Positions 3,857 to 37,146 of a DNA stretch of 64,000 nt are shown here, piece after piece; positions within the stretch are counted from its first letter, which is position 1, and every line of letters starts with the position of its first letter. The notes under the pieces are model-generated. The model made no database searches. It was given only the letters and a program-made list of their open reading frames with translations, and was not told where the DNA came from. A program made the position numbers and the translations under genes. This stretch comes from a virus. Its lineage: Duplodnaviria > Heunggongvirae > Uroviricota > Caudoviricetes. The stretch lies in IMG/VR virus record IMGVR_UViG_3300038530_001701; one strand, written 5' to 3'.

Positions 3857-6436
3857 ATGAGCTTAATATCTTACTACAAGTTAGATGGAAATGCTTTAGA
3901 TGAATTAAATAGGCTTGATGGGTCTCCTAGTGGCGTTGTCTGGAGCAATGGACTCTCTGGACAATGCGCAGAGTTTGATGGTGTTAACGACCTTATTAGC
4001 TTTGGTAGTGGGCCTGATTTCTTTCCTCATAAGAATTTTTCACTTTCTATCTGGTTTAAATCTTTTGGGACAACACCGACTACAGGGACAACACCAGCTA
4101 TCTTTGGATTTACCTATGGTGTTCTATTAAGAGTTCTATCTAACAGACTCCAGTTTGGTATTGACACAGGCTCAGATTTTCAATACATATTCTCACCATC
4201 TACATATGATTTTTACAACGATGATACTTGGCACAATGTAATCATTTGTGCATCTGCCAATGAAATGAGAATGTATCTTGATGGTGAACTTGTAGGTTCT
4301 GCTGCTACAACGTGGGCTGGTAATACAAGATGGACGAACAGTGTTGTAATCGGAAGGGATTTAAACAATAGTAATTACTTCTTCCGTGGTCTAATGGATG
4401 ACTTTAGAATCTACGATCACGTTGTTTCTGAGAAAGAAGCAAAAGATATCTATAGATTAAAAGTTCTCCATAAACTTCAAGAAGAACTTGATAATACCGC
4501 TGATTCTGGTAATACAATTACAGTGCCAGACTCTCCAACTATCTTAGGTGATACATCAATAGAGTTCTGGTTTTACCCAACTAACAATTCCAGAAGACAG
4601 ACTATCTGGAATAAAGGGTATGGGGGTGAAGGGACAATTAACTTTGAACCTACTACCAACTATTTGAGATTTTACTCAGGCCCAAATGGCGATAATAGCT
4701 CTGGATATGTAGCAATAGAAAGCTCTACAGGAATTGCTTTGAATCAATGGCATCATGCAGTCATTGTAAGGGATATGAAAAACCAAACATGGCAATGGTA
4801 TCTTGATGGAGTTCCTGATATTCAAGAATCATTCTCGTTTACTTCTGTTGGTGAAACTACTTTTGACCTGACTATTGGTACTGGATATACATCTGATTTT
4901 GTAGGTAAATTGCGTGGAGTTAGACAATACGCACGAGTACTTACTGACAGTGAAGTTGAAGCTTTGTATACAACAGGGCTTTCTATTGATAATTTTGGCT
5001 CAATACATAGTAACTACTTTGTTGAGTCTGGTGTAGTAACTCCTAACATTCTTGATTATAAAACTTGGGTGGTTGGTACTTCCGGTTCACAAGTTGGATT
5101 TTCTGCAAACGGGTCTGCATCTGAAAGTTATATTGTAGAAGATGTTGACCCATTCAGTAAATCTATTCCTGTTTGGGAAGCTAGACCAGACTCTGTTTCT
5201 GGTGCTGACGGTGGTTGGAATGGTGACCTTTTCTCTGTGGACACTACCAAATTTTACAGATTCTCTGTATGGATTAGAAGAACAGTAGTTGGGAATGGTT
5301 CTGCATATTTAGGTCTGAGTGACACTGGTGGTACTGTATTACAAAGGGCTGATGGTAGTGCAAACTCTAACCCATATTTCTGGTCTGGTGGTTGGTCTTA
5401 TGGCGCTGGAGAGTGGATTCTGTTTGTAGGCCACGTATGGCCTGAAGGTTCTGGTTTTGGTGCGTTTCACCCAGACTCAGGTATTTACAGTGTATCTGGT
5501 GGAAGACTTGGAGATATTCAAAGAGATTTTGTATGGGTTCCTGAAGTTACAAATGCACTCCACAGAACTTATCTATATTACTCTACAGATACATCCACAA
5601 GACAACAGTGGTGTTACCCTAGGGTAGATGTTTTGGATGGAACAGAGCCTTCTATAGAAGCTTTGTTGGCTGGATTTGATTCTATTAACGGTGATCGTAT
5701 TGACGAGTTAGGTGCGTCTGATGTTCCTGACAATTTCGGTGTTAAATATGAGAAGACTAATGTTGGTGAATTAAATGAAGTTGGTACTTATCGAGGTCTT
5801 GGTTGGTACATTCCATTTAAATACTCTGCAAAGTCTTTCTCAGAAACTCCAAACGTAGTCACAGATGTTGAAGGAGCAACTATATTCAATGGTGAGTCGG
5901 TTCATTTCTCGAACACAACAAACGAGACTGTTGAAGTTTCTGATCTAACAAATATCTTAGGATCATCAACAACATCAGCTACATTCTCTGTATGGATTAA
6001 TAGAACTGCTTCTAACAATACTTACAACATGTTCATGGGACAGGGGACATTGTATTTCTCTTTCAGGTCATCTAACCAAATACTTTGGTCTATGCCTACA
6101 ACTGCTGGTCAACAGACATTAACTACATCACAAACATATTCAAGCAATGAATGGTTACATTGTGTATTTGTTATTGATGGTACAACAGCAAAGGTTTATG
6201 TAAATGGTGAACAGAAGGCATCAAGAACAGTAGATTCTCCTGTATCTATAGCTAATACATTTTCTTTTGGTGATGGTAGAGATAGTGCATGGTATCCGTT
6301 CCAAGGATATGTTAAAGATTTTAAAGTGTTTAATGTTTCATTATCTGGCGAAGAAGTGTATAATGAATACTCATCTAACTTAAAGGCTTCTATCAATAAG
6401 AATACAGCCTTTGCTAAAGAATTTATCGAGGTATAA
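3857..6436 (+). CDS. tail fibre / receptor-binding protein with concanavalin-A-like (LamG-type) lectin domains
   Basis: 859 aa; N-terminal segment resembles LamG/pentraxin-like jelly-roll domains; lies in the fibre gene block. Confidence 0.6.
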   Translation: MSLISYYKLDGNALDELNRLDGSPSGVVWSNGLSGQCAEFDGVNDLISFGSGPDFFPHKNFSLSIWFKSFGTTPTTGTTPAIFGFTYGVLLRVLSNRLQFGIDTGSDFQYIFSPSTYDFYNDDTWHNVIICASANEMRMYLDGELVGSAATTWAGNTRWTNSVVIGRDLNNSNYFFRGLMDDFRIYDHVVSEKEAKDIYRLKVLHKLQEELDNTADSGNTITVPDSPTILGDTSIEFWFYPTNNSRRQTIWNKGYGGEGTINFEPTTNYLRFYSGPNGDNSSGYVAIESSTGIALNQWHHAVIVRDMKNQTWQWYLDGVPDIQESFSFTSVGETTFDLTIGTGYTSDFVGKLRGVRQYARVLTDSEVEALYTTGLSIDNFGSIHSNYFVESGVVTPNILDYKTWVVGTSGSQVGFSANGSASESYIVEDVDPFSKSIPVWEARPDSVSGADGGWNGDLFSVDTTKFYRFSVWIRRTVVGNGSAYLGLSDTGGTVLQRADGSANSNPYFWSGGWSYGAGEWILFVGHVWPEGSGFGAFHPDSGIYSVSGGRLGDIQRDFVWVPEVTNALHRTYLYYSTDTSTRQQWCYPRVDVLDGTEPSIEALLAGFDSINGDRIDELGASDVPDNFGVKYEKTNVGELNEVGTYRGLGWYIPFKYSAKSFSETPNVVTDVEGATIFNGESVHFSNTTNETVEVSDLTNILGSSTTSATFSVWINRTASNNTYNMFMGQGTLYFSFRSSNQILWSMPTTAGQQTLTTSQTYSSNEWLHCVFVIDGTTAKVYVNGEQKASRTVDSPVSIANTFSFGDGRDSAWYPFQGYVKDFKVFNVSLSGEEVYNEYSSNLKASINKNTAFAKEFIEV

Positions 6437-23696: not shown

Positions 23697-25547
23697 TTAA
23701 TAGGAGGCTGGTTCATCTACGTGTTCTTGAGTGTAGGCACCAAGCATTCCGAAGTCTTCCTCATCATCGCTATAGTCACCTTCAGGGTCATACCCTTCCT
23801 CAAGTCTTGCTGTTTGATTGTTGTAGAACCACCATCCAGCAGGGCCTGTATTACCAGTCCTACGGGCTTTACTTACAACAACCTTAGTTGTGTTACGAAC
23901 TCTCTCGTCAGGGTGTTCTTTGTCTCTCATCAAAAGAATGTTGACCATACCAACTTGGAAGATAGAACCTGAACCCTTAATATCTTCTTCGTGAATGTCA
24001 GCACCAGTTGAGTTAGCCTTAGCTCCAGAACCACTTTTACGAACGTGAGCTACGTTAATGTGAACAATCTTCTCACGCTTTACAAAGCGAAGTAGCCATG
24101 ACATAAACTCATCCATACCTTCGTTCTGTTTACCGCTTAAAGCGAGTGTCAGAGGGTCTAGAATGATACCCTTACAGTCACAACCCTTAACCATGTATTC
24201 AATCTTATTCTTAAGATCATCGTCACATACATCACCTTGATGGTCAAGAATAATAAATCTATCCTCACCATTAGGTAGCTTAGTAAGTTGATCATAAGCA
24301 TCCTTGAACTTCTCGGTCTGGTAAAGTTCGCGTTTTTCTTCATCATCCATGTTAGCAAGTTTGATGCCAAGGTGTACACTTACCAAGTTCTCGATAAGTT
24401 CACCCATATCACTCTCTAGAGGAATAACACCAATCTTATGCTCTGAATTGAAAACGAAATGATAAAGAAACTCATTTACAACCGTAGTTTTACCTACTGA
24501 ACTCGCAGCAACTACGTTGATAATCTCACCTAAAGCAAAACCACCATTCATCATTTGTTGAAGACGAGCAGCGAAAGCAGGCAAACCTAGCTTAACCCAA
24601 TTAGCTCTTTCCATCAAAGCGTCAAAAGTTTGACTACTACCTACAACACCAGCAGGAGTGTATTTACCATGCTGTGCAGCTTTCCAGAAGGCTTGGTATA
24701 GTTCGTCCTGAAGATCATCCTTTACGTAATCACAAGGGTCATTCAGTCGAAGATCAGCAATATGTGCTTGCCCCGGTTTCAATAGCTTTGCAACAGCTTC
24801 AGCGGCTTTTTTACCAGCTTCGTCATTGTCAAGCATGATGATAACTTTCTCGAAAGAAGTCACCCAATCATAGTTTGCTTTGACCTGCTTATCTGTAGAA
24901 GGTTCCCCTGTCACACCAGAAACTACAGGAGTTTCATACTTAGGGTTCTTCTCCATCATGGTTTGTTTCATAGCCATAGCATCTTCTTCACCACCTACGA
25001 TGATGAGGAACTTACCACCTTTCGGATAAAGATGTTGACCAAACATTTCACAATCATTTTTTACACTACCAATCGCTCGGAAGTGTCGTTTGTCTTTCTT
25101 AGGAACTGAGAGATTTCTGACTTTATAGCCGACGATCTCACCGCCTTTTGTTACTGGATAGTAACGCTTGAAGGGTTTGCCGTTTGCATCGAACTCTGTG
25201 CGTACACCATACATTTCGTTGATTGGCTTTTTCAGTTTACGCTTTCGATCACCACGACATTCTAATTCTAAAACATCATCTAATTCTTCTACCACTTGGT
25301 TATGATCCTCCCAACTATCATCTGCCTCTATTACTCCTTCAAAATCCTCACCATAGAAGGTCTCGACAAGTTTTGGTGGAATATAGCCCTTACCACCACT
25401 ATCACCACAGGCGAAGCAGTAACCGTCTATAAACTCATTACCTTTCTTGTCGAGCTTCTTGTAAAGGGTTACGGCATCCGAAGAACCGCAACCCTCATGA
25501 GGACAGGGAAGGTGTGTTTTATAAGTATCACCTTCTTGTTGACTCAT
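23697..25547 (-). CDS. bifunctional primase-helicase (T7 gp4-like)
   Basis: 616 aa; N-terminal Zn finger CPHEGCG...CFACG, TOPRIM region, DnaB-family Walker A AASSVGKTT. Confidence 0.9.
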   Translation of the reverse strand: MSQQEGDTYKTHLPCPHEGCGSSDAVTLYKKLDKKGNEFIDGYCFACGDSGGKGYIPPKLVETFYGEDFEGVIEADDSWEDHNQVVEELDDVLELECRGDRKRKLKKPINEMYGVRTEFDANGKPFKRYYPVTKGGEIVGYKVRNLSVPKKDKRHFRAIGSVKNDCEMFGQHLYPKGGKFLIIVGGEEDAMAMKQTMMEKNPKYETPVVSGVTGEPSTDKQVKANYDWVTSFEKVIIMLDNDEAGKKAAEAVAKLLKPGQAHIADLRLNDPCDYVKDDLQDELYQAFWKAAQHGKYTPAGVVGSSQTFDALMERANWVKLGLPAFAARLQQMMNGGFALGEIINVVAASSVGKTTVVNEFLYHFVFNSEHKIGVIPLESDMGELIENLVSVHLGIKLANMDDEEKRELYQTEKFKDAYDQLTKLPNGEDRFIILDHQGDVCDDDLKNKIEYMVKGCDCKGIILDPLTLALSGKQNEGMDEFMSWLLRFVKREKIVHINVAHVRKSGSGAKANSTGADIHEEDIKGSGSIFQVGMVNILLMRDKEHPDERVRNTTKVVVSKARRTGNTGPAGWWFYNNQTARLEEGYDPEGDYSDDEEDFGMLGAYTQEHVDEPASY

Positions 25548-33171: not shown

Positions 33172-33247
33172 TACTTGACTTAGGTTGCCTACAGCACTTA
33201 AAATACTTCAACGGTAAAGTAAGAGCAACCTGATAGTAGGAGATTAT

Positions 33248-33718
33248 ATGGAAATTGGTGATTTATTTGTTGCAACAAGACCTATTGTTAATGGATTAGG
33301 TTGTGTAAGTGCAGGTAAAGTCTTTAAGTTGGTAGAAATTCTTAAATCACAACCTTGGTATCATGCCCCCATCTACAGATTTGACCACAAAGATAGTCGT
33401 ATGGTATTCTCTACATTCTATCCTGAGAAGTGGTTTGAAGCTATGGGCGTTAACGCAAGTCAAGAACAAAAGAAGGAGAAAATTATGTACGAACAAATGA
33501 AACGAGCATTGAAATTGAAACGTGGTGAGCATATTGTTGGTAGTATCGACAAGCAAACTGGTTCGTTGAGCTTTTCAACTAATCCTAGTAACCACGGTAC
33601 AAGCTTCCACAAGGCTTTGGCAGAAGCTAAACGTCTTGCAGGTATTGAGACAGGTAAGAAATTTGTAGTAGTTGAAGTAAAAGCTATTGCATCTGCTGTC
33701 GATATCGTGGTAGAGTAA
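33248..33718 (+). CDS. hypothetical protein
   Basis: 156-aa ORF, RBS ggag. Confidence 0.45.
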   Translation: MEIGDLFVATRPIVNGLGCVSAGKVFKLVEILKSQPWYHAPIYRFDHKDSRMVFSTFYPEKWFEAMGVNASQEQKKEKIMYEQMKRALKLKRGEHIVGSIDKQTGSLSFSTNPSNHGTSFHKALAEAKRLAGIETGKKFVVVEVKAIASAVDIVVE

Positions 33719-33742
33719 CACAATCAAGTCCTCTACGGAGGG

Positions 33743-33864
33743 CTTATTGAAAGATAGCCTGTGGCCCTGCAAACTGACTACAAAACTTGAGCGGGGTATG
33801 TGGTTAGCTCTGAGTCAGCAGAGAAAGGTAGCCCAATCTGCCTCTCAGGCTGTCTTTCAATAAG
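33743..33864 (+). ncRNA. ~120-nt structured element closed by a 19-bp inverted repeat (cttattgaaagatagcctg / caggctgtctttcaataag)
   Basis: Near-perfect 19-bp IR (one G-U) enclosing GC-rich internal hairpins; non-coding; first element of the structured-RNA cluster. Confidence 0.3.
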
Positions 33865-33868
33865 TTTT

Positions 33869-33925
33869 AGGATGATTACAGCAATTTATACACTAGACTC
33901 TTAATCTAACCAGTATATTCATCCT
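33869..33925 (+). ncRNA. minimal hairpin carrying conserved UUACAGCAAU motif
   Basis: aggatga-...-tcatcct 7-bp closing helix; motif ttacagcaat immediately 3' of the 5' arm as in elements A-D. Confidence 0.35.
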
Positions 33926-34096
33926 GTATAAATAGACTTTACTTTTCAACTGCTTTAGGGTACTCTGAGAATCCTAATGGGAACCGTCAGAGATAGTTAG
34001 CATAGGTTTGAAGATTGATCACTTCAAGAACTACCAAGCCCTGACAAATTCTAGATAACTGTCGATAAAAACAAAGCAGTTGAAAAGTAAAGTCTT

Positions 34097-34192
34097 AGAA
34101 TGTGTCCAGCAAACTAAAAATTTTTCCGCCGAAATTGGAAACGAAGGGTTCGACTCCCCCGTACTAGGCTAGTGGTAGCCGAAAGACATTCT
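34097..34192 (+). ncRNA. Y-RNA-like / tRNA-mimic element A (degenerate)
   Basis: Closing helix agaatgt/acattct; variant motif gtccagcaaact; T-loop-like ttcgact; D-arm-like ggc-tagtggtag-cc. Confidence 0.4.
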
Positions 34193-34215
34193 GTTTAATA
34201 AATGAGGAGACAATC

Positions 34216-34674
34216 ATGAGTAAGATTCTTGAACAAATTAAAAAAGATCGCTTGCAAGCACGTAAAGATCGTGATACCTTTACTGCTGTAACACTGACAA
34301 CTCTGCTTGGTGAAGCATCACCTTCAGGTAACGATACTATCAGCGATAAGGAAGTTCAGAAAGTGATTGAAAAGTTTGCAAAGAACCAGCGTTCAATGCT
34401 TGCTCATGATCTTTCAACACTTCAGCGTAGTGAAATCAACCGAGAGTTGAAGATTTACGAAAAGTATTTGCCAAAGCAGTTGACAGAGGATGAGATTAAG
34501 CGTATTCTCTGCACTGAATACACAGTATATGTGGATGGAAATGGTAAAGGAAACCTTAACGTAGGCTCTGTCATGCGTTATCTGTCTAGCAACTATGCTG
34601 GACAATACGATGGTAAGGTGGCAAGTAAGGTTGCAAAAGAATTTGTTGACAGCATCGGCAACGGTGTGGTTTAA
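34216..34674 (+). CDS. hypothetical protein
   Basis: 152-aa ORF with strong RBS (aggag), between structured RNA elements. Confidence 0.45.
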   Translation: MSKILEQIKKDRLQARKDRDTFTAVTLTTLLGEASPSGNDTISDKEVQKVIEKFAKNQRSMLAHDLSTLQRSEINRELKIYEKYLPKQLTEDEIKRILCTEYTVYVDGNGKGNLNVGSVMRYLSSNYAGQYDGKVASKVAKEFVDSIGNGVV

Positions 34675-34682
34675 TAAGCTTT

Positions 34683-34790
34683 AGGTTCACTTACAGCAAT
34701 AACTTACTAAAGCCAATCGGGAGGGTTAGGTTCGATTCCTAAATAGGTAGTGTAGTGGTAGCACGCCCGACAAAAAGTAAATGTGAACCT
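34683..34790 (+). ncRNA. Y-RNA-like / tRNA-mimic element B
   Basis: 8-bp closing helix aggttcac/gtgaacct; bulge ttacagcaataa; ttact/agtaa helix; tcggg/cccga helix; canonical T-arm ttagg-TTCGATT-cctaa; D-arm gtg-tagtggtag-cac. Confidence 0.5.
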
Positions 34791-34820
34791 GCTCTAATTT
34801 AAACTAAGGAGGTATCAACC

Positions 34821-35150
34821 ATGAACGAACAAATAAGTCTAGAAGGTTTCAAGAAATTTGTTTCAGAACAACCTGAAGGTGAATCGATTGATCATTGGGG
34901 TGGTGGCTGGTGTTCTTGTGCAGTCGGTGCCTATGTTAAAACAACCCTTGGAAAACCTGTTGACAAATCTTGGGATGATGAGGTACAGTACGTATCAAAG
35001 TCGTTCATGAGAGACACTGATAAGGTTCCCTCTGGTTTAGAGAGACTTCTTGCAAACGCTGACCAAGCCACTTATAAGTGTCCAACATACGGAGCTTTGA
35101 ACAAACTACTGGAAAAATATACAGTAGTAGAGGAATTTGAAGTAAGTTAA
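34821..35150 (+). CDS. hypothetical protein
   Basis: 109-aa ORF with RBS aaggagg. Confidence 0.45.
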   Translation: MNEQISLEGFKKFVSEQPEGESIDHWGGGWCSCAVGAYVKTTLGKPVDKSWDDEVQYVSKSFMRDTDKVPSGLERLLANADQATYKCPTYGALNKLLEKYTVVEEFEVS

Positions 35151-35155
35151 GAATT

Positions 35156-35286
35156 AGATTGATTACAGCAATCCTACTATTCCATCCAAAGGACGAGACG
35201 CCGTGTTCGATTCCGGCACTCCCCGCCAATTAAACTATGTTATGGGGAGTTGGTGTAGTGGCAGCACACGTAAGTAATATCAATCT
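35156..35286 (+). ncRNA. Y-RNA-like / circularly permuted tRNA-like element C
   Basis: Closing helix agattgat/atcaatct; bulge tacagcaatcc; T-loop ttcgatt; acceptor-like 7/7 complementarity actcccc (3') ... ggggagt (5') with encoded discriminator+CCA (gCCA); D-arm gtg-tagtggcag-cac. Confidence 0.55.
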
Positions 35287-35305
35287 GTTGAACTAGGAGC
35301 TTATT

Positions 35306-35524
35306 ATGAAAAAATTGACTGTAGAGGTTTATGAAATTCACGAAAAACTGCCGGAATATGAGTGTGAGAATGTTTTGGTATTCACAAGTCATTTTCTAAA
35401 AGGTGTAGACGCATTTTATCAAGATGGCAAGTTTTGGTTGGATGATGAACTTGATACGTTTTTCAAGGAAGATACAATAATTGGTTGGTGTTATTACCCA
35501 AAAAAGGAACAAATTATTAAATAA
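35306..35524 (+). CDS. hypothetical protein
   Basis: 72-aa ORF with RBS. Confidence 0.4.
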   Translation: MKKLTVEVYEIHEKLPEYECENVLVFTSHFLKGVDAFYQDGKFWLDDELDTFFKEDTIIGWCYYPKKEQIIK

Positions 35525-35529
35525 GTTTT

Positions 35530-35658
35530 AGATTCACTACAGCAATTCTTACTAATGGGGACTGAAGGTCGCTGGTTCGAATCCAGCCCTGCCGCCCAAC
35601 TAACGATATGCGGCGGGTAGCTCAGTGGTAGAGCGTCAGTATAAAGTAATGTGAATCT
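35530..35658 (+). ncRNA. Y-RNA-like / circularly permuted tRNA-like element D (best-formed)
   Basis: Order 5'->3': closing helix agattcac (pairs gtgaatct at 35651); bulge tacagcaattc; ttact/agtaa; anticodon-stem-like actga (pairs tcagt at 35636); variable aggtc; perfect T-arm gctgg-TTCGAAT-ccagc; acceptor 3' cctgccg + c + CCA; 12-nt linker; acceptor 5' cggcggg; ta; D-arm gctc-agtggta-gagc. Confidence 0.6.
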
Positions 35659-35672
35659 GTTAAATAAAAGTT

Positions 35673-35705
35673 TGCTTACAGCACAAAATTTTGCTAAAGT
35701 AAGCA
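35673..35705 (+). ncRNA. small hairpin containing the TTACAGCA motif just upstream of the vWA gene RBS
   Basis: tgcttac-agcacaaaattttgctaaa-gtaagca, 7-bp stem. Confidence 0.3.
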
Positions 35706-35733
35706 TTATCGCAAACTGAAAGGAGGAAACAAT

Positions 35734-37146
35734 ATGTCTAGACTAATTAAAGGTATTCAGCAAGGCAACGCAACAGCACGTACTGCTAACGGTGCCAAAA
35801 CTCATGCAACCTCACACAATGCCTGTGTAGACTTGTTTGGTGTTGTTGGTTCAGCACGTAACATGGATAAGGGTACTCTGGTACGTATGTTTGATAACGC
35901 ATACGGTGAGAATCCTGAAGTAGCTGTACGTATCATGCAGTGGCTTCGTGATGTTCGTGGTGGTGCTGGTGAGCGTCAAGCTTTCCGTAACCTGTTCGCT
36001 GATCTGATCGAAAACCATCTGGAAATTGCCAAGCGTGTTGTGGTGAAAGTTCCTGAGCTTGGTCGTTGGGATGATGTTCTGGTTGCTGTTGGTACTCCTT
36101 TGGAGCCTGAAGCATTTGAACTGATTCGTGCAGGTCTGAACACACCTGAAACTGCTGGTCTCTGCGCTAAGTGGATGCCGCGTCAAGGTGAAGTAGCTTA
36201 CAAGCTGCGTAAAGCATTCTCTATGACTCCGAAAGGCTGGCGTAAGATGCTTGTAAGCCTCTCTAACACTGTTGAGCAGAAAATGTGTGCAAAGCAGTGG
36301 CATGAGATTGAGTACGGCAAACTGCCTTCTAAGGCTGCTGCAATGTACCAGAATGCATTCAAGCGTAACGACGAGGCACGTTACAACCGTTATGTAGAAG
36401 GTTTGCAAAAAGGTACTGAGAAAATCAATGCCGGTGCGATTTTCCCTCATGATGTTGTAGTGTCTGCACGTAAGGGTAATGATAAGGTTGCTACTGAACA
36501 GTGGAAGGCTCTGCCAAACTACATGGAAGAATCTGGTGAGAACATCTTGCCAATGATCGATGTATCTGGTAGTATGTCTTGGACTAATGTCGGTGGTAAT
36601 CCGAACCTGACTTGCCTTGACGTTGCTCTGGCTCTTGGTATCTATACCTCTGAGCGTATGGGTGGAATGTTTGCAAATCACTACATTTCATTCTCTGAGC
36701 GTCCTGTACTTGGTAAGGTTCAAGGTACTACCCTGAATAGCCGTGTACATAACGTAATGGGTAAGCATGTTGGTTACAGCACTAACTTCCAAGCTGCTTT
36801 TGAGTTGATTCTGCGAACAGCGGTTGACAACGATCTGGCACAGGAAGAAATGCCAACTATGATTCTGGCTCTGTCTGATATGGAATTTAACGCTGCTGGT
36901 CGTGGTAATACTAACTTCCAAGCAATCAAGCGTAAGTTCGAAAATGCAGGCTACAAGATGCCTAAGTTGGTTTTCTGGAATCTGAATGGTCGTGAAGGTA
37001 ACATGCCTGTCACTGTTCATGATTCAGGTACAGCACTGGTTAGCGGGTTCTCGCCTGCAATCCTGAAGTCTGTACTTTCAGCGAAAACTGTAACTCCGGT
37101 TGATATTATGCTTGACACGGTAATGGTTGATCGGTACAATTTCTAA
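35734..37146 (+). CDS. vWA-domain protein (MIDAS DVSGSM) with N-terminal alpha-helical domain; candidate Ro60/TROVE-like RNP protein
   Basis: 470 aa; MIDAS motif LPMIDVSGSMSW followed by vWA-like beta-alpha pattern; Ro60 = TROVE + vWA architecture; directly downstream of tRNA-mimic RNA cluster; strong RBS aaaggagg. Confidence 0.55.
   Translation: MSRLIKGIQQGNATARTANGAKTHATSHNACVDLFGVVGSARNMDKGTLVRMFDNAYGENPEVAVRIMQWLRDVRGGAGERQAFRNLFADLIENHLEIAKRVVVKVPELGRWDDVLVAVGTPLEPEAFELIRAGLNTPETAGLCAKWMPRQGEVAYKLRKAFSMTPKGWRKMLVSLSNTVEQKMCAKQWHEIEYGKLPSKAAAMYQNAFKRNDEARYNRYVEGLQKGTEKINAGAIFPHDVVVSARKGNDKVATEQWKALPNYMEESGENILPMIDVSGSMSWTNVGGNPNLTCLDVALALGIYTSERMGGMFANHYISFSERPVLGKVQGTTLNSRVHNVMGKHVGYSTNFQAAFELILRTAVDNDLAQEEMPTMILALSDMEFNAAGRGNTNFQAIKRKFENAGYKMPKLVFWNLNGREGNMPVTVHDSGTALVSGFSPAILKSVLSAKTVTPVDIMLDTVMVDRYNF

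Follow-up and report, generated by a model that had tools for sequence, protein, structure and literature searches.

A probable YrlA-type Y RNA with an encoded CCA beside a Ro60-like gene of a tailed phage

Y RNAs have been shown to gate Ro60 and to tether it to PNPase (PMC4201824). Pairs of Ro60 and Y RNA are also known from phages: 22 phages were reported by Chen et al. in 2014, including mycobacteriophages, CcrColossus, and Bacillus phage G according to PMC12135203, and Thermus phage phiLo was added in 2025 (PMC4201824, PMC12135203). The analysis described here concerns a stretch of 64,000 nucleotides (IMG/VR record IMGVR_UViG_3300038530_001701), referred to below as the window, which comes from a large tailed phage. 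Within it lies element D (35526..35664, plus strand; core 35530-35658), an RNA-like element that contains all parts of a tRNA in a permuted order. Element D is probably the gene for a Y RNA of the YrlA type, whose protein partner would be a Ro60-like ring protein with a gene starting 75 nt further downstream.

The RNAs of the YrlA class are bound by a Ro60 orthologue and are modified by TruB and DusA. Element D runs through the same order of parts, from the terminal helix to the D arm, as YrlA of S. Typhimurium (RF02553; Chen et al. 2014, PMC4201824). Like YrlA, it lies next to a Ro60-type gene on the same strand, in a locus with several Y-like RNAs, some of which are devoid of the tRNA-like module, as is YrlB. 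The two differ in their motif, partner, and acceptor end. Where YrlA has GNCGAA(N0-1)G, the family of D carries UWCMGCAA (UACAGCAAU in D), the CGCAA or CAGCAA of which resembles CGAA without being identical to it, and which occupies the position of GNCGAA in YrlA and of GGUCCGA in metazoan Y RNAs (PMC4201824). The DUF2828/DUF7788 protein encoded beside D is Ro60-like by fold alone, unlike the Ro60 of YrlA, and D has a full 7-bp acceptor stem, an encoded N-CCA (one nucleotide followed by CCA), and a linker, whereas the acceptor stem of YrlA is short and capped. D scores below the Rfam threshold for YrlA and lacks the GNCGAA motif, while sharing the architecture and the gene linkage of that family; its distance to the Ro60-like gene lies within the 4 kb used for YrlA.

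RNase P cleaves the YrlA of M. smegmatis both in vivo and in vitro; the resulting 5' fragment ends in CCA, and both halves stay with Rsr (PMC4201824). This RNA shares with D an acceptor stem of 7 bp that stacks on a T stem of 5 bp. The M. smegmatis RNA is encoded in a host genome and receives CA after cleavage, whereas D is encoded by a phage that specifies the whole CCA, and its cleavage is a prediction. In the light of this precedent, which was missed by an earlier annotation made from the letters of the window alone (the sequence-only reading), the encoded CCA and linker become the most informative part of D. The Ro60 of Thermus phage phiLo binds two Y-like RNAs encoded upstream (Yrl1 and Yrl2) and forms a ternary complex with host PNPase, attenuating PNPase (PMC12135203). 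The present phage resembles phiLo in its predicted Ro60 ring and in having at least two Y-like RNAs directly upstream on the same strand; unlike D, Yrl1 and Yrl2 are stem–bulge–stem RNAs with a CGAA motif, and the term "tRNA-like" does not occur in the text of that paper (PMC12135203). In the Escherichia phage Bas63, a Ro60-like protein (gp130) is encoded beside a block of tRNA genes and counters the ppl defence, and the authors of this PhageMaP preprint guessed that some of the annotated tRNAs are Y RNAs (PMC11482910). That work identified no RNA partner, and the role against ppl was reported there for gp130, not for the phage studied here.

All tRNA parts listed by the sequence-only reading were found base for base where it had placed them, as established by reading the sequence and by a scripted check of each pair, in which all 34 proposed base pairs of D proved to be standard. 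The two ends of the core pair into a closing (outer) helix of eight base pairs, formed by the 5' strand AGATTCAC (= AGAUUCAC) at 35530..35537 and the 3' strand GTGAATCT (= GUGAAUCU) at 35651..35658, which is followed by a near-invariant G at 35659. The single-stranded motif UACAGCAAU (35538..35546; family consensus U-W-C-M-G-C-A-A) resides in an 11-nt asymmetric loop next to this helix. A middle helix of five pairs (UUACU at 35549..35553 with AGUAA at 35645..35649), which the sequence-only reading had overlooked, leads to an anticodon-stem-like helix, also with all five pairs formed, in which ACUGA (35561..35565, corresponding to tRNA positions 39-43) faces UCAGU (35636..35640, positions 27-31). 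Followed outwards from the tRNA-like body, the element passes from the anticodon-like stem through a 7-nt/4-nt internal loop, the 5-bp helix, and an 11-nt/1-nt loop to the 8-bp helix. The enclosing helix had been described as bulged; the 8-bp closure stands, while the supposed bulge is not in the helix itself and is rather the asymmetric internal loop of 11 nt versus 1 nt.

Inside these helices, and on the same plus strand, the parts of a tRNA follow one another. The variable-loop equivalent AGGUC (35566..35570; A44, G46, and C48 by sequence reading and in the ARAGORN drawing) is followed by the T arm GCUGG-UUCGAAU-CCAGC (35571..35587), the 3' acceptor strand CCUGCCG (35588..35594), the discriminator C (35595), and the encoded CCA (35596-35598). 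A 12-nt A/U-rich linker, ACUAACGAUAUG (35599..35610), connects the CCA to the 5' acceptor strand CGGCGGG (35611..35617), which pairs with the 3' strand at all seven positions through six Watson–Crick pairs and one G-U pair. The stretch 35618..35635 then comprises the U8-A9 equivalent, the D arm GCUC-AGUGGUA-GAGC (35620-35634), and the G26 equivalent (35635). G35610, the last residue of the linker, is able to pair with the discriminator C35595 as an eighth acceptor pair. The nucleotides that make tertiary contacts in tRNA can be read in D under standard numbering (U8, A9, A14, G15, G18, G19, A21, G26, A44, G46, C48, T54, T55, C56, A58, and G53-C61), but an anticodon loop and an anticodon are absent from the element. 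The minimum-free-energy fold (-40.9 kcal/mol) includes the T arm, the closing helix, and an acceptor hairpin of 8 bp, and the tRNA-like fold evaluates to -35.4 kcal/mol. A further pairing, between UGGG(G) of an internal loop and CCCA, was considered and rejected, as it is unsupported in the copies of the type of the neighbouring element C and incompatible with an L-shaped tRNA fold.

The arrangement of 3' half, CCA, linker, and 5' half, with mutual complementarity of the parts, was a central claim of the sequence-only reading and withstood the pair check as well as a formal detector. ARAGORN calls a canonical 75-nt tRNA once 35611-35640 and 35561-35598 are joined via any 7-nt loop, so that the permuted but complete tRNA set of D passes when un-permuted. 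In the native 64-kb window the same program finds no tRNA or tmRNA, the artificial loop being required for a call. This order of parts, together with the acceptance of the rejoined halves, might suggest a true circularly permuted tRNA gene, the transcript of which would give rise to a decoding tRNA either by circularisation and re-opening or by cutting and ligation. Such a gene is highly improbable here, since the element has no anticodon loop and its anticodon-like stem runs via two more helices into the 8-bp terminal helix, since the neighbouring elements B, A, and A0 (described below) share the same frame and yet cannot be tRNAs, and since, to our knowledge, known permuted tRNA genes depend on an archaeal or eukaryal splicing endonuclease. 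The term circularly permuted tRNA, as used in the sequence-only reading, is apt for the order of parts and not for the gene class, and the same absence of an anticodon loop and extension of the stem agree with its statement that D is neither a tRNA gene nor an intron-split tRNA. Permuted tRNA genes (as in Cyanidioschyzon merolae) and permuted ssrA likewise place a 3' acceptor strand (with CCA in ssrA), a linker, and a 5' acceptor strand in this order, and in two-piece tmRNA the linker is excised and two RNA chains hold the tRNA-like domain together, which is the outcome predicted for D. Unlike permuted ssrA and tRNA, D has no tag reading frame, pseudoknots, or anticodon loop, and ARAGORN, which detects permuted tmRNA, is negative.

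The topology that the sequence-only reading had proposed, that of the tRNA-like domain of a Y RNA, is the one returned by Rfam. When the 2.5 kb at 33500-36000 were searched in E-value mode, YrlA (RF02553) was the sole meaningful match, covering 35548-35658 with the full model and the same helix order (38.2 bits, E 3e-6). Members of the family of D that match YrlA (E <=0.01, among those tested) score just 34-40 bits in Rfam, so the RNA family escapes Rfam-based annotation. Covariance models were built for the family itself. R1, built from D alone, found two more copies in the window; of 80 IMG/VR loci picked for their similarity to the partner protein, 12 had a match that lay beside the homologous gene and ran in the same direction as that gene. 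The iterated model R2, searched on the window and 92 loci, gave 51 matches, five of them in the window, and every one of the 51 lies on the strand of the Ro60-like gene. R3 was trained on sequences from distant phages only, though these had been selected and aligned by R2, and its best match anywhere in the 64-kb window is D (93.6 bits, E 1e-19, zero non-standard pairs). All three models match D over the full model length, which delimits the element as 35526-35664.

The helices of D are upheld by compensatory changes in all six cases. Paired cells make up 92.3% of the R2 alignment, and sliding the 3' partners lowers this share to 35-47%. Among 48 related distinct sequences, both sides have changed in 32 of the 34 pairs, and none of 500 shuffles reaches the observed covariation values. 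Across the family, all eight pairs of the closing helix and all five of the anticodon-like stem have changed on both sides, the latter stem being 92% paired, the T arm 97.5%, and the D stem 97%, while the middle helix is the weakest at 74%. This pattern contradicts the reading of D as a decayed remnant of tandem tRNAs, with a T arm left from the first and a D arm from the second, or as a chance resemblance. Tandem tRNAs are known to give false YrlA matches (PMC4201824), and relatives of the partner gene are embedded in tRNA clusters in Felix O1, KP2025, and Pseudomonas phage Milchi; but in D one acceptor strand complements the other, and the same holds for the strands of the anticodon-like stem, a match that neighbouring tRNAs would not show, and neither ARAGORN nor Rfam finds a tRNA in the window. 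A remnant of this kind can practically be set aside.

The Y RNA reading is further supported by the kin elements of D found beside homologues of the Ro60-like gene in many phages. Clear orthologues of D, C, and B occur in closer relatives, in which the partner protein is 65-95% identical and the gene order Band_7 ... YqeY ... Ro60-like ... rIIA-rIIB is common. Across unrelated phages, the elements may lie upstream or downstream of the Ro60-like gene, always on its strand. Members that had gone unannotated are present in cultured phages, namely in Klebsiella phage KP2025 (L092:4704-4828 and 4838-4964), in Felix O1 between tRNA-Asp and tRNA-Lys (L095:5420-5554, about 24576-24710 of the Felix O1 record), and in mycobacteriophage Rumpelstiltskin just after the "RNA-binding protein" gene (L096:4029-4160). 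No match to the R1 and R2 models was found in KVP40 or in most of the 80 loci selected by protein; either the association between RNA and gene is frequent and not universal, or the RNAs in these loci are too divergent for the models.

A candidate contact site for the protein emerges from the most conserved part of the family. The motif UWCMGCAA directly follows the 5' strand of the closing helix, four of its residues (C, G, C, and A) show no variation among the 48 distinct members, even in those without the tRNA-like module, and a G follows the 3' strand of the helix in 47 of the 48. As the conserved helix and the single-stranded motif outlive the loss of the tRNA-like module, they have the likely look of a protein docking site, and the closing helix of D is predicted to be the helix bound by the Ro60-like protein.

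The gene for this protein (35734..37146, plus strand) encodes 470 aa and carries the Pfam domains DUF2828 and DUF7788, with PHROG 850 labelled "RNA-binding protein". Its AlphaFold model (pLDDT 90.8, pTM 0.90) was compared with the PDB by Foldseek, where ranks 1-9 are all full-length Ro60 structures, with about 500-570 aligned columns, E-values from 2e-8 to 3e-6, and TM-scores up to 0.67; isolated vWA domains follow only at E >= 9e-3. The Ro60 matches include the Ro60 of Thermus phage phiLo, Xenopus Ro60, 9NEP (titled as a Ro60/pre-5S rRNA complex), and Deinococcus Rsr. Identity in these structural alignments is 12-17%, the best match being the phiLo Ro60 (9KOP, E 2e-8) at 17%. These comparisons support the prediction that the partner consists of a HEAT-repeat ring and a C-terminal vWA domain in the Ro60 fold. 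Homologues from Felixounavirus are about 46-47% identical to it, and DUF2828/PHROG 850 genes are present in no fewer than 710 phage genomes sequenced so far, among them those of Felix O1, KVP40, and Listeria, Staphylococcus, and mycobacterial phages.

At the acceptor position, members of the family take one of three forms. Some have a stem of 7-8 bp topped by a tetraloop (GNRA, UUCG, or CUUG), some lack a stem, and in others a stem of 7 bp precedes a single nucleotide, CCA, and a linker rich in A and U. Within the set of loci selected by protein, this third form (N-CCA) is limited to the clade of the window, which provides 12 copies, seven of the D type and five of the C type. These copies comprise eight different covarying acceptor helices, each with seven of seven positions paired; their discriminators are C, G, or A, and their linkers, of 9-15 nt, vary in length and sequence, whereas CCA is kept in 11 of the 12 while the stems covary. 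An unbiased scan of IMG/VR (TACAGCAA then GTTCGANTCC, next R2) yielded 52 distinct elements whose acceptor stem has seven contiguous pairs, among which N-CCA stands at the exact offset in 12, compared with about 0.7 expected (binomial P ~1e-11 to 1e-12), while CCA was found at other loop offsets 2, 0, 0, and 0 times. Both the retention within the clade and this enrichment indicate that the encoded N-CCA is a selected, recurrent feature and not a leftover, and N-CCA mimicry recurs in many independent phage lineages.

In several IMG/VR loci, family members have 7-bp acceptor stems with the loop (N)UUGGUC or UUGGGA (L118:2342-2465, L173:4308-4433, L107:149-275, L146:724-848, and L116:1880-2006), and these loops are complementary to the (N)CCAA of the N-CCA class. 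T-box leaders read tRNA 3' ends via UGGN, of which the UUGGUC loops are reminiscent, and such loops may pair with the 3' ends of tRNAs or with other Y RNAs of the family. An attempt to assign a donor tRNA to D was abandoned, as a BLAST search of its 3' half against phage records hit Cys, Pro, Arg, Asn, and Lys tRNAs; given these matches to tRNAs of many specificities, no His or Pro identity is claimed.

The following course of events would be consistent with these features. The RNA of D would probably be excised from a polycistronic early transcript that carries the four sister elements and several small genes, and its 5' and 3' ends would pair into the 8-bp helix, to which, together with the adjacent single-stranded UACAGCAA motif, the protein is predicted to dock. 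Between these ends, the RNA would fold as a complete tRNA body with permuted wiring and no anticodon loop, and this module would be exposed. Host RNase P would then cut at the 5' side of the acceptor stem of D, and of C, and 3' exonucleases would trim the freed linker, a short 3' trailer, back to the CCA, leaving a two-piece, still base-paired RNA with a tRNA-like CCA-3'OH end. By analogy with the Ro60/Y RNA systems, the RNA would gate the Ro60-like ring and tether it to a host factor that recognises the shape of tRNA or RNA 3' ends, for instance PNPase, to the benefit of the phage.

RNase P recognises the 12-bp stack of acceptor and T stems, the elbow, and RCCA. We infer the cleavage of D and C, at about even confidence, from this stack with its elbow and RCCA, from a linker that could be trimmed, and from the fate of the M. 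smegmatis YrlA. Within the clade, the visible determinants are N-CCA, an unstructured linker, and U or G at -1. The C-type copies have U at -1, G+1:C72, R73, and CCA, which is the canonical set of determinants for bacterial RNase P, and the D-type copies have C+1:G72, with G at -1 pairing with C73 in six of the seven. Granted that D is a Y RNA, it is a real possibility, though short of an even one, that the same RNA is never cleaved and that N-CCA within a closed loop is itself the recognition element, which a protein might take for the 3' end of a tRNA or which might pair with a partner containing UGG. YrlA of S. Typhimurium and Yrn1 of D. radiodurans stay uncut (PMC4201824), in most relatives a stable tetraloop closes the acceptor stem, several N-CCA loops of other phages span just 5-8 nt, and the UUGGUC loops of some members are complementary to CCAA, all of which would suit an uncut RNA. 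Against it stand the determinant set of the C-type copies and the long (9-15 nt), A/U-rich, poorly conserved linker of the clade, which resembles the leader or trailer of a tRNA. In addition, cleavage does occur in the YrlA of M. smegmatis, which is the only YrlA known to have an acceptor stem of 7 bp (PMC4201824).

If the RNAs are cleaved, they could go further than serving as a tether. It is conceivable, but rather unlikely, that the Y RNAs of this clade are two-piece CCA-3'OH molecules that host enzymes treat as genuine acceptor arms, matured by RNase P and possibly aminoacylated. Hints of this are G1:C72 with R73 in the C type and C1:G72 with a G-1:C73 pair, recalling tRNA-His, in the D type. 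If it were true, an acceptor mimic displayed on the ring could be a decoy, sensor, or sponge for host factors acting on tRNA 3' ends, and its targets might include anti-phage toxins aimed at the acceptor end.

Several observations weigh against the assignment of D as a Y RNA of the Ro60-like protein, or against its cleavage. No Rfam family is matched at its gathering score in the window, and the 38.2 bits of D compare with a gathering score of 69 for YrlA. The alignments from which covariation was measured had been fitted to the model. The D arm is not formed in the minimum-free-energy fold, the z-score of which is just -2.0, so that thermodynamic modelling, taken alone, backs the structure weakly. 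Promoter and terminator signals are not above those of shuffled sequence in the scan made. The partner protein has no sequence match in the PDB (phmmer, E up to 1), and its Pfam domains are DUF2828 and DUF7788, not TROVE; with fold matches and without sequence matches, it would be a ring protein of the Ro60 fold whose connection to TROVE does not show at the level of sequence. As regards cleavage, some N-CCA loops elsewhere are 5 nt long and fit an uncut loop as well as a cut one, and the acceptor stem is capped by a tetraloop or missing in many family members, so that cleavage is not general to the family. Finally, the closest relative (L093:416-556, partner 95% identical) has C-ACA where D has C-CCA, a single substitution. 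The element of this relative, on a contig of 2.3 kb, is otherwise almost identical to D, and the ACA could be a real variant or an assembly error; the Klebsiella KP2025 element L092:4704 likewise reads A-ACA.

Element D is the last of five elements on the plus strand, interleaved with small genes that have good ribosome-binding sites. The sister element C (35152..35292) has the same architecture, with a 7-bp acceptor stem (ACUCCCC/GGGGAGU), the discriminator G, CCA, and a 15-nt linker. Element B (34679..34796) possesses a T arm and a D arm without an acceptor hairpin, and the divergent element A (34093..34198; R2 35.1 bits, R3 37.7 bits) has T and D arms and 2 bp at the acceptor position. Element A0 (33865..33931), the fold of which was computed, consists of the closing helix and the UACAGCAAU motif only, without the tRNA-like module, and is YrlB-like (R2 32.5 bits, R3 27.4 bits). 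The array is therefore a graded series, from stem and motif in A0, through T and D arms without an acceptor stem in A and B, to the full acceptor stem with N-CCA in C and D.

Each of the five elements occupies the gap between a stop codon and the next Shine–Dalgarno sequence, as would be expected if they were intercistronic cassettes in which tRNA-like folds mainly punctuate the mRNA for RNase P or RNase E, which would cut it into separate messages, the link to the Ro60-like gene being incidental. The lack of evident separate promoters and terminators in the scan would suit this explanation, as would the frequent position of homologous genes among tRNA genes. It is nevertheless quite improbable, because A0, A, and B, having no acceptor stem, offer nothing for RNase P to cut, and because the halves of the others would stay base-paired after cutting. 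Moreover, UWCMGCAA and the closing helix are conserved in the absence of the tRNA-like module, which indicates a protein site, and in phages unrelated to one another the elements accompany the Ro60-like gene, without exception on the same strand. These observations favour the assignment of the elements as Y RNAs of the Ro60-like protein.

The tRNA-like domain of Y RNAs is, as a core idea, published since 2014, and D is rated as a divergent member of a YrlA-like family tied to DUF2828 proteins, in a subclass with an encoded N-CCA. No RNA partner of DUF2828 proteins is defined in the searchable literature, a statement that does not extend to the supplementary phage list of 2014, with which overlap is possible. 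With its covarying structure, invariant motif, and members in cultured phages, the family of D is a candidate RNA partner family for the DUF2828/PHROG 850 proteins, one of which, a Ro60-like protein, has recently been implicated in countering a bacterial defence system. The N-CCA subtype turns the cleaved, CCA-tailed Y RNA of M. smegmatis from a lone case into a recurrent, selected feature, through which the purpose of the tRNA-like module of Y RNAs becomes a testable question.

The phage itself encodes rIIA, rIIB, a PolA-type DNA polymerase, a primase-helicase, NAMPT, ribonucleotide reductase, and tail fibres. A megablast search of the locus against 50,697 phage records gave no match, and a protein search with rIIA returned distant relatives only, so that the phage is without a close cultured relative. 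The label T4-like, suggested by rIIA and rIIB, was dropped, as the PolA-type polymerase, primase-helicase, and NAMPT genes do not support it.

Some further observations concern the array and its neighbours. Two weak candidates with the TACAGCAC motif lie at 33178-33237 and 35665-35723, one of them between D and the Shine–Dalgarno sequence of the Ro60-like gene, and arrays of two to four elements are common in IMG/VR contigs. Between A0 and A, a 170-nt element (33934-34097) has a perfect closing stem of 23-28 bp (-56.2 kcal/mol, z -6.8); it is also present in the relative L081, with one compensatory change from C-G to U-A, and absent from five other relatives, and it could be a processing site of the RNase III type, another structured RNA, or a small inserted element. 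The array also includes a gene resembling YqeY and the tail of GatB (34216-34674; Pfam PF09424, E 3e-15; PHROG "tRNA amidotransferase"), the position of which is kept in most close relatives (L081, L082, L084, L086, L087, L089, and L094). The homologous tail domain of GatB contacts the tRNA elbow, and by this analogy the YqeY/GatB-tail-like protein could be a second protein that binds the tRNA-like modules. In the record of KP2025, a 432-nt "tRNA-Arg" feature overlaps the start of the coding sequence, probably through an error of annotation. Two relatives have an HNH endonuclease gene (L082:4472-4990 and L084:4472-4990) inserted directly upstream of the Ro60-like gene, at the place taken in the window by D and its spacer, and in L082 a 58-nt remnant at 4400-4457 is all that is detected of a Y-like element.

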